Shown: one piece after another, positions 1-1,105 of the stretch | Layout of the letters: every line of letters starts with the position of its first letter | Position numbering within the stretch: the stretch's first letter is position 1 | Assembly: GCA_000004985.1 (NCBI GenBank) | Contig: GG739561.1 | Reading direction: 5' to 3' (one strand) | From: Naegleria gruberi | Taxonomy: Eukaryota | DNA: 1,105 nucleotides | The notes under the pieces: generated by a model | Database searches by the model: none | What the model saw: only the letters and a program-made list of their open reading frames with translations | Told to the model about the DNA's origin: nothing | Made by a program: the position numbers and the translations under genes

Positions 1-134
1 TAGATGATGTTTTGGCGAGGTGAATGTAGTAATGGCTGGTGAGGAAGGAAGCAAAGGGAGAACTCTCCTCATGGTGGCTTCTCAAGGTAGCATGCTGAAG
101 GTGGGAATACCAACCAATATACCTATTTAGCAGG

Positions 135-156
135 GTGATGATGAATTCATGATGAG
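135..156. promoter_or_regulatory. Cluster of three TGATGA hexamers (136..141, 139..144, 150..155) around a perfect 10-bp palindrome ATGAATTCAT (141..150). Candidate protein-binding or RNA-motif site, function unknown.
   Basis: Direct reading of GTGATGATGAATTCATGATGAG. ATGAATTCAT is its own reverse complement. Confidence 0.25.
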
Positions 157-159
157 TAA

Positions 160-186
160 TTGTTGTTTGTTGTTTTTTTTTGTTGA
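160..186. repeat. T/G-rich low-complexity tract (tgttgtttgttgtttttttttt gttg) containing a T10 homopolymer (A10 on the minus strand).
   Basis: Direct reading. Poly(dA:dT) tracts of this length are known nucleosome-excluding elements in yeast intergenic DNA. Any role here is inference. Confidence 0.6.
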
Positions 187-229
187 ATATTTAACGGTCA
201 GAACAGACAACTTTCAGCGGTTTTTGGTT

Positions 230-314
230 GGCGCGAATTTACCGTGATGTAACATTTTTTAGCTCACCTCCCTCGGTCTATTGTTAAATAAATACTTTTT
301 TAATTTTTCTTAGA
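230..314 (-). terminator. Probable 3' UTR / polyadenylation region of the BTB gene (yeast-type A/U-rich elements).
   Basis: The minus strand immediately after the TAA reads TCTAAGAAAAATTAAAAAAGTATTTATTTAACAATAGACC...AAAAAATGTTACATCACGG. The A-rich AAGAAAAA/AAAAAAG stretch resembles a yeast positioning element. TATTTATTTAA and TGTTACATC resemble UA-rich efficiency elements (TATATA/TACATA family). This is an inference from known yeast 3'-end signal classes, and the cleavage site is not determinable from sequence. Confidence 0.35.
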
Positions 315-329
315 TTATTTCTTAGATTT
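306..329. repeat. 12-bp tandem direct repeat x2 (tttcttagatta / tttcttagattt, 11/12 identical) straddling the stop codon. Degenerate echoes (cttttcagcttt, cttttca) continue to about 348.
   Basis: Direct reading: 306..317 and 318..329. On the coding strand this spans the ...KSKK TAA end of the ORF and the first 9 nt of the 3' UTR. Confidence 0.7.
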
Positions 330-1105
330 CTTTTCAGCTTTCTTTTCATATAATTGTTTAATCTTAATTCTGGTCAGTTCTGGTAAATTCAAGAAACCAG
401 CAGCACCACGAAGCTTTTCGAAATTATTTAAAATGTAATGTTCACATTCAGATTCCAAAGTCTTGTCATTATAGAGCATGGCAATGTCAATAACAGACCA
501 AACAATAGAATCTTCCAAAAGTGAAACGACCATTCTTCTACAAACACTAGCCATATCAACCAAATCCAACATGATACAATAAACTAAAATACCAAGACAA
601 TTTCTTGGTGAAAGTCTAATAGTATCAGTGTACAAATAGCTCAAGACTTCAAGCATAACTTCAGTGGAATAATCGGTCAAGTGAACAACTCTTTCCTTTG
701 ATTCCATCATACCAGAAGTAACAAACATTCTTGAGAAGAATGGAGATCTTGACATGATTAATCTGTGAACTGCAATACCACCTGTTGGAACAGTATTTCT
801 AGTCAATGGTGACATGATTTCGTGTTCTAATTCAGCAGTAGCATCATTAGTTTCAAAGCTAGTTTCTGGAATTTCAAATGGTTCCTCTTCGAAAATTTCC
901 TCTGTTGGTCCTCCGACATGTTGAGCTACAGCATCACCTTGATCCAAAACAACAATCAAATCGCTGTATGAATGATCATTGATGAGAGTGGAGAAATCTT
1001 TGTGAATTTGAGATAGAACAAGCTTGGTAACTTCCAAATCCTTTTGTTCTTCCGCGGTACAAATCTTTACAATAGCTGGATAATGATTATCTGGTGATAT
1101 TGTCT
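315..1105 (-). CDS. BTB/POZ-domain protein, C-terminal portion (5'-partial; the N-terminus lies beyond position 1105). Stop codon TAA at 315..317.
   Basis: Seen in sequence: a 240-codon open frame plus 22 further in-frame sense codons upstream of the TTG at 1035..1037. These read TISPDNHYPAIVKICTAEEQKD then LEVTKL..., with no stop before the window edge. Codon usage is uniform and yeast-like (Arg=AGA x3 in HRLIMSRSPFFSRMF). The protein carries BTB hallmark motifs: DLIVVLD (strand B1), IAVHRLIMSRSPFFSRMF (the H-x-x-x-L-x-x-x-S-P-Y/F-F helix) and EVMLEVLSYLYTDTIRL (the LL-FiYTG motif). The product call rests on established knowledge of the Pfam BTB (PF00651) consensus, recalled from memory rather than searched. 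Confidence 0.85.
   Translation of the reverse strand, partial: TISPDNHYPAIVKICTAEEQKDLEVTKLVLSQIHKDFSTLINDHSYSDLIVVLDQGDAVAQHVGGPTEEIFEEEPFEIPETSFETNDATAELEHEIMSPLTRNTVPTGGIAVHRLIMSRSPFFSRMFVTSGMMESKERVVHLTDYSTEVMLEVLSYLYTDTIRLSPRNCLGILVYCIMLDLVDMASVCRRMVVSLLEDSIVWSVIDIAMLYNDKTLESECEHYILNNFEKLRGAAGFLNLPELTRIKIKQLYEKKAEKKSKK
345..515 (-). other. BACK-like / 3-box-like helical segment following the BTB domain (EDSIVWSVIDIAMLYNDKTLESECEHYILNNFEKLRGAAGFLNLPELTRIKIKQLYE), apparently truncated after the first helices.
   Basis: It resembles the start of the BACK domain consensus (...A..y....L...c..fi..nf..v.....F..L....l..ll..d.L). The protein ends about 10 residues later, so only a partial BACK-like region can be present. 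Confidence 0.45.
516..995 (-). other. BTB/POZ domain core (about residues F15..L174 of the displayed 240-aa translation).
   Basis: Alignment by eye to the BTB consensus: DvtlvVgdg...efkaHkavLaarSpyFkalf...ielddvspeafeallefiYtg...lleLLaaAd.l. All three conserved blocks are present in the right order and spacing apart from one loop insertion. Confidence 0.75.
777..932 (-). other. Acidic low-complexity insertion loop inside the BTB domain (AVAQHVGGPTEEIFEEEPFEIPETSFETNDATAELEHEIMSPLTRNTVPTGG), probably disordered.
   Basis: In canonical BTB domains strand B1 (DvtlvVgdg) is followed within a few residues by the ...efkaHkavLaarSpyF helix. Here about 50 residues rich in E/D/P/T lie between DLIVVLDQGD and IAVHRL. 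Confidence 0.6.

Follow-up and report, generated by a model that had tools for sequence, protein, structure and literature searches.

A predicted disordered, acidic insert within the second BTB domain of an LZTR1-like Kelch-BTB-BTB protein from Naegleria gruberi

The window analysed here is a 1,105-bp stretch of DNA that forms a complete mini-scaffold of Naegleria gruberi, an amoeboflagellate of the Discoba (Heterolobosea). Its sole long open reading frame (ORF; nt 318..1103) runs on the minus strand, as do all the protein features mapped below; it ends at a TAA stop codon (nt 315..317) and runs on past the right edge. Since the frame is open at that edge, the window holds only part of a longer protein, its C-terminal 262 residues. 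The translation matches the last 262 residues of NAEGRDRAFT_50587 (EFC42092.1/D2VLP0; here P0152), a 979-residue Kelch-BTB-BTB protein, at 100% protein identity, and we assign nt 318..1103 as a partial coding sequence (CDS) of that protein from the ORF call and this identity. The encoded part comprises only the second BTB/POZ domain (BTB2) and the linker that precedes it; the Kelch domain lies outside the window. Our subject is an acidic stretch of about 50 residues within this BTB2.

GenBank carries the window's own gene as a partial CDS of 215 residues, EFC35216.1 (P0151; 'predicted protein, partial [Naegleria gruberi]'). That gene model begins at D48 (nt 962), and the frame itself is open to nt 1103. 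NAEGRDRAFT_50587 sits on a 380-kb scaffold. Because the 262-residue translations are identical, the window looks, by sequence, like an assembly redundancy or haplotig, a small scaffold duplicating the 3′ end of NAEGRDRAFT_50587. A first word-indexed homologue search returned 2 proteins only, a word-indexed profile search added full-length heterolobosean relatives and generic Kelch proteins, and an exhaustive HMMER scan gave one 95%-identical protein and several relatives of 800-1000 residues. Close relatives with organism names come only from Naegleria and Willaertia, the rest being metagenome or read-archive sequences. The Kelch-BTB-BTB protein exists in at least four paralogues in N. gruberi (NAEGRDRAFT_50587, _51566, _71106 and _81606; labelled P0152 for NAEGRDRAFT_50587, P0004, P0007 and P0010) and Willaertia magna has at least two members of the family. 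Many metagenomic relatives of 800-1000 residues have the same layout.

A preliminary description of this DNA, made from the letters alone, had named three BTB signature blocks, and all three are found in the minus-strand ORF where it had placed them: DLIVVLD (residues 48-54; nt 942..962), IAVHRLIMSRSPFFSRMF (IAVHRL…RMF; residues 110-127; nt 723..776) and EVMLEVLSYLYTDTIRL (EVML…IRL; residues 148-164; nt 612..662). Its assignment of a BTB/POZ domain also held. The Pfam BTB profile (PF00651) matches residues 110-192 (nt 528..776; profile positions 23-106 of 110) with 45.8 bits and E=7.6e-12, above the cut-off of 20.5, and phmmer matched BTB-BACK-Kelch/SPOP adaptors of CUL3 with E values down to 4e-9. 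An AlphaFold2 model of the window protein, a predicted rather than experimental structure built on a 16-sequence alignment, has a mean predicted local distance difference test score (pLDDT) of 77, with strands at residues 49-52, 109-112 and 139-141 and five helices. By Foldseek this model resembles the solved BTB-BACK structures of KBTBD4, KBTBD2, SPOP, vaccinia A55, KLHL3 and KEAP1 (E ~1e-6 to 1e-8), with a probability of 1.00 to the BTB structures of SPOP, KLHL3, KEAP1 and KBTBD4 and a template modelling (TM) score of 0.79-0.83 when normalised to the SPOP BTB. The profile matches and the predicted model together confirm that the window encodes a genuine BTB/POZ domain with a predicted core of B1-B2-B3 sheet and helices.

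The acidic stretch lies inside this fold. The Pfam match begins only at profile position 23, so HMMER unaided fails to cross the insert. When residues 58-107 were deleted in silico, however, the BTB match began at residue 41 and extended over profile positions 5-106, with 52.3 bits. The paralogue P0007, in which only 18 residues separate the end of B1 from the conserved His, is bridged by Pfam unaided, from profile position 14 on. In a 16-sequence family alignment, DLIVVLD aligns with the YSDxxLxL/V block of insert-free members and D48 is nearly invariant; from D54, at the end of B1, to the conserved H113 there are 58 residues in the window, as against 6-8 in the insert-free members. The same span is 6-8 residues in 137 of the 212 BTB domains of the retrieved homologues, so that the window's 58 residues differ from most of them. 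Because four independent tests (the deletion, the family alignment, the 212-domain sample and the AlphaFold2 model) agree, we place DLIVVLD as strand B1 inside the fold, and sequence and model both confirm that the acidic stretch falls between strands B1 and B2.

The preliminary description had set the insert at nt 777..932, between B1 and the HR…SPFF helix. The coordinates are exact: the stretch AVAQHV...PTGG is 52 residues, 58-109. Its position inside rather than outside the BTB fold was borne out as well, since PF00651 stops at the insert and spans positions 5-106 once it is removed. The site needed sharpening, in that strand B2 (GIAV) intervenes before the helix and the insert therefore belongs to the B1-B2 hairpin.

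Around the insert, the parts of BTB2 were mapped as follows. The domain opens with an N-terminal helix, LEVTKLVLSQIHKDFSTLIN (residues 23-42; nt 978..1037; helix 23-42 in the AlphaFold2 model), followed by B1 (strand 49-52 in the model) and by the B1-B2 linker of about 54 residues with its acidic insertion of about 50 residues, delimited by pLDDT and family spacing (residues 55-108; nt 780..941). Strand B2, GIAV, occupies residues 109-112 (nt 768..779), and GIAVH is kept in all close orthologues. Next come helices A1/A2, HRLIMSRSPFFSRMF (residues 113-127; nt 723..767), in which H113 and R119 are invariant. A 3-box, or first part of BACK, was placed at residues 203-242 (nt 378..497) from the Pfam BACK score and Foldseek. 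The Pfam BACK score, 19.9 bits, falls just short of the 20.9 cut-off, and this marginal match reaches over profile positions 3-42 of 103, the 3-box part only; in the deletion construct it scores 20.9 bits. The Foldseek alignments to BTB-BACK chains cover about 230 columns and run through the 3-box/BACK region. The protein ends in a helix and Lys-rich tail (residues 242-262; nt 318..380; predicted helix 242-261).

Lys is absent from residues 55-109 of the linker, which contain 11 Glu and 2 Asp against 1 Arg, along with 7 Thr and 5 Pro, for a net charge of −12. That the insert might be disordered had been suggested in the preliminary description, and the models concur: pLDDT is below 50 for residues 57-98 in the window protein and 36-46 for the same stretch in a model of the full-length protein. 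Its suggestion of a lineage-specific expansion likewise fits the variation among heterolobosean relatives, in which the loop is anywhere between 18 and 72 residues long. Counted from the end of B1 to the His, it has 58 residues in the window and in P0002, 72 in P0001, 52 in P0154 and 32 in P0005; it has 37 in P0004, 27 in P0010 and 18 in P0007, among the N. gruberi paralogues, and 42 and 50 in Willaertia. The loop differs in length among 9 orthologues and paralogues, each of which preserves the reading frame, and the acidic character is retained in every version of at least 27 residues. Judged from sequence and prediction, the loop is a disordered, translated, lineage-variable acidic insert. 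It is a fairly ordinary, modest decoration of a well-known fold, probably regulatory or neutral.

Beyond the window, the relatives supply the full-length architecture. In P0003-P0007 and P0010, Pfam recognised two BTB stretches C-terminal to a Kelch propeller (PF24681, and PF24981, the ATRN/LZTR1 beta-propeller). In the full-length AlphaFold2 model of P0152, a disordered head leads into a Kelch propeller and two BTB domains, and a 3-box/partial BACK comes after the second BTB. The propeller's top match among solved structures is the Kelch domain of LZTR1 both by sequence (9mey_B, E=2.4e-22) and by fold (9mey/9mez/9mf0, complexes with RIT1, MRAS and KRAS; TM ~0.73). Human LZTR1, a CUL3 adaptor for RIT1, MRAS and KRAS, has the same layout of an N-terminal, six-bladed Kelch propeller, then BTB1, then a C-terminal BTB2-BACK, and the phi-x-E motif discussed below is present in the Naegleria BTB2. 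The two differ in that fold alignments show only 15-16% identity, and in that the Naegleria protein has about 120 extra, disordered residues at its N-terminus that are rich in acidic residues and Lys, an acidic insert of about 50 residues in BTB2 and a smaller one in BTB1. Sequence and model thus point to an LZTR1-like (Kelch-BTB-BTB) architecture, whereas orthology to metazoan LZTR1 is not established. We use 'LZTR1-like' rather than orthologue because the LZTR1 propeller match was only marginally ahead of KLHDC2/KLHDC3 and no named LZTR1 protein was recovered in the word-indexed profile search. In the literature that we searched, no paper linked Naegleria to LZTR1 or to Cul3/BTB, and none linked LZTR1 to Dictyostelium.

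The acidic/Lys-rich head (residues 1-123 of P0152), predicted to be disordered, is family-wide, and a conserved block, NFKLDVLQSSKMFFESV, lies between it and the propeller (residues ~125-150).

The preliminary description had left the role of the protein unclear; its place as the second BTB of an LZTR1-like Kelch-BTB-BTB protein and an intact phi-x-E motif now give it a probable one. The BTB2 segment RMFVTSGMMESKE aligns with KLHL3 AMF-TGDMSESKA, which sets M132-M133-E134 (nt 702..710), in the loop between helix A2 and strand B3, on the Cul3-contacting M83-S84-E85 of KLHL3. Only 8 columns of the 16-sequence family are invariant, E134 among them, and M132 and S130 are nearly so. The Naegleria BTB2 shares with KLHL3, KLHL22, KEAP1, KBTBD2/4 and SPOP the BTB and 3-box fold and the MFxxxMxESK segment with its conserved phi-x-E. 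The domain order of the BTB-BACK-Kelch adaptors is reversed, in contrast, since in the Naegleria protein the Kelch domain comes first and is followed by two BTBs. In KLHL3 the phi-x-E motif inserts into Cul3, and the E85A substitution abolishes Cul3 binding (PMC3616122). None of the four Cul3-contact regions of KLHL3 is the hairpin equivalent to B1-B2 (PMC3616122), so the insert should still allow a cullin to bind. The literature credits Naegleria with nine cullin genes (PMC9928731). Given its phi-x-E motif, whose Glu does not vary across the family, the protein most likely serves CUL3 as a substrate adaptor. In such an adaptor, the Kelch propeller would bind the substrate, BTB2 would bind Cul3 through M132-M133-E134, and the acidic B1-B2 loop could act as a flexible, negatively charged arm whose conserved islands serve in docking and/or phosphorylation.

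The loop outside two such islands is mostly unalignable among relatives. Island 1, EEIFEEEPFEIPETSF (residues 68-83; nt 855..902), has the core E-P-x-E-I-P-E-x-x-F, preceded by acidic residues and Phe or Tyr; I70, E73, E74, P75, E77, I78, P79 and F83 are invariant in 3 orthologues, and the island was found in 5 of 9 heterolobosean sequences, being degenerate in the rest. Island 2, EIMSPL (residues 95-100; nt 804..821), contains an S-P dipeptide. E95, S98 and P99 are invariant in 3 orthologues, and its SPL/SPI motif, with consensus [LIM]-S-P-[LI], occurs in 6 of the 9 sequences. Compared with the 95%-identical relative L004, the insert has unchanged length and proportions of nonsynonymous (pN) and synonymous (pS) differences of 0.039 and 0.164, and the 3′ flank is unalignable; residues 66-84, which include island 1, show zero substitutions. 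Against the orthologue L001, island 1 differs by three synonymous changes and one conservative change. These patterns hint, weakly, that the loop is not a pure spacer and that the islands, as short linear motifs of a flexible acidic arm, most likely serve in docking and/or phosphorylation. Phosphoregulation of the loop is speculation, from the conserved S-P and a few Ser and Thr beside acidic residues.

On balance we favour the view that the window encodes the C-terminal BTB2 and 3-box/BACK of an LZTR1-like Kelch-BTB-BTB protein, most likely a CRL3 (cullin-RING ligase 3) substrate adaptor, with an acidic loop that carries probable linear motifs. Several observations weigh against parts of this view, beyond the narrow margin of the LZTR1 propeller match: P0004 (a paralogue), P0005 and Willaertia have the islands only in decayed form; the loop changes more rapidly than the fold does (pN/pS ~0.24 vs 0.09, against L004); the full-length model docks the loop nowhere; and in human LZTR1 itself it is debated which BTB/BACK module binds CUL3 and which dimerises (bioRxiv 10.1101/2023.01.10.523203). 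Because these module roles are debated, we considered a rival in which BTB2 serves only in oligomerisation or localisation, any Cul3 binding being left to BTB1. A BACK2-BACK2 dimer has been put forward for LZTR1, and variants or loss of its BTB2 mislocalise the protein (bioRxiv 10.1101/2023.01.10.523203). In the present family, however, BTB2 retains an intact phi-x-E and the MF ahead of it, which rank with its best-conserved positions, and a 3-box-like helical hairpin follows the BTB, and we regard a BTB2 that binds no cullin as unlikely. A different frame, that of a budding-yeast or other fungal BTB protein of unclear role in an organism whose Cul3 works without BTB adaptors, was the one adopted in the preliminary description. 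AT-rich, yeast-like codon usage (GC 0.30-0.40) is all that speaks for it, and the exact protein match to N. gruberi entries refutes it; the named close homologues, too, all come from Naegleria or Willaertia. Since the source is N. gruberi, the argument from yeast Cul3 and Elc1 and the proposed comparison across Saccharomycetales do not apply. We also weighed whether nt 777..932 might be an unannotated or optional in-frame intron (an 'exitron'), giving a mature hairpin VLDQ-GGIAVH. An in-frame pair, AAG/GTGATG ... CAACAG/GT, brackets exactly these 156 nt, and their excision would leave a linker of canonical length. Yet the splice-site pair is absent from the L001 orthologue and displaced in L003, the donor lacks +3A, +5G and +6T whereas introns of the L001 orthologue use GTAAGT, both GenBank gene models translate the stretch, and it holds frame and length with pN below pS against L004 while the truly non-coding flank is unalignable. 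As 10 of the 41 GT..AG pairs of the region are in frame by chance in any case, we judge the bracketing pair coincidental; with unconserved sites, a weak donor and coding-type constraint, the exitron was rejected as very improbable.

The most serious competitor concerns the loop alone. It may be a disordered, low-complexity expansion, neutral in function, at a surface hairpin that permits insertion, with islands that only reflect recent common ancestry, which we hold to be possible though doubtful. The 18-72-residue range of the loop and its poor alignability outside the islands fit a neutral expansion, as do the relaxed constraint, the lack of predicted docking, inserts of 39-63 residues and other composition at the same hairpin of unrelated BTB proteins, and the insertion of unknown function in the first BTB of RhoBTB (PMC4931677). 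Working the other way, E-P-x-E-I-P-E-x-x-F and SPL persist between sequences that are 61-69% identical overall and whose surroundings are scrambled, an EIP/IP core is still visible in P0005 and in Willaertia P0006/P0153, and acidity is kept in all versions of at least 27 residues. If the islands do function, a specific role can be imagined for the first. Kelch propellers read acidic degrons, such as WNK 'EPEEPEADQH' for KLHL3 and ETGE for KEAP1, which island 1 resembles. Island 1 (EEIFEEEPFEIPETSF) might then be a degron-like, pseudo-substrate or partner-docking motif that, with the nearby S-P, controls whether a heterolobosean LZTR1-type ligase of ancient, pre-metazoan origin is active or assembles; this we rate as a long shot. 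Docking of the loop onto the Kelch propeller itself found no support in the full-length model of P0152 (loop pLDDT 36-46), which, being built on a 14-sequence alignment, is a weak test of docking.

Inserts at this hairpin are not confined to the family. Six distant BTB proteins (P0132, P0031, P0145, P0133, P0147 and P0102) carry B1-B2 inserts of 39-63 residues that are Ser-rich, acidic or mixed, and because of these the sequences suggest that the B1-B2 hairpin is a general, recurrent insertion hot spot of the BTB fold. RhoBTB, a tandem-BTB, Cul3-binding protein, offers a partial parallel: a long insert, variable in length, splits one of its BTB folds, and the published description calls its first BTB bipartite, with an insertion whose function is unknown (PMC4931677). 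It has an N-terminal Rho GTPase instead of Kelch, however, and its insert is in the first BTB; the likeness is taken from its description. BTB1 of NAEGRDRAFT_50587 (P0152 ~616-638) also has an enlarged B1-B2 hairpin, DVVFRVRDVLGQEIDSLSYVLAHK, smaller than the BTB2 insert, and the BTB1 hairpin is longer still in the L001 orthologue (2049..2753; …RLRDHKQSEQNGQGGVDSLSYVLAHK).

The main value of these results is a correction, from yeast to Naegleria, and the classification of the protein into an uncharacterised heterolobosean Kelch-BTB-BTB family. That family shares its layout with LZTR1, which regulates the levels of RAS proteins and is of clinical importance, and the existence of an LZTR1-like family in Heterolobosea is its main interest. 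If its members are true relatives of LZTR1, the architecture would predate animals and Naegleria would be a distant comparison point.

The rest of the window (nt 1..314; no strand assigned) is 3′ untranslated or intergenic DNA, by scans for RNA families, tRNAs and repeats and by its unalignability with the flank of L004; the Rfam, tRNA and repeat scans found no Rfam family, tRNA or meaningful repeat in it. An imperfect 14-nt inverted repeat pairs nt 163..176 (TTGTTTGTTGTTTT) with nt 946..959 (AAAACAACAATCAA), with 769 nt between, and beside its first arm the 3′ flank has a T-rich run, at about nt 160-185. The repeat resembles a coincidental match between low-complexity stretches. On L001, a contig derived from metagenome data, the orthologue is interrupted by GTAAGT…TAG introns (2746..2880 and ~1413..1510), one of them within BTB1. 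Because these introns split the gene, prokaryote-style calling chopped it into four 'genes'; neighbouring genes on L001 encode, among others, a Q/H-rich CCCH zinc-finger protein and a DUF4116 protein.

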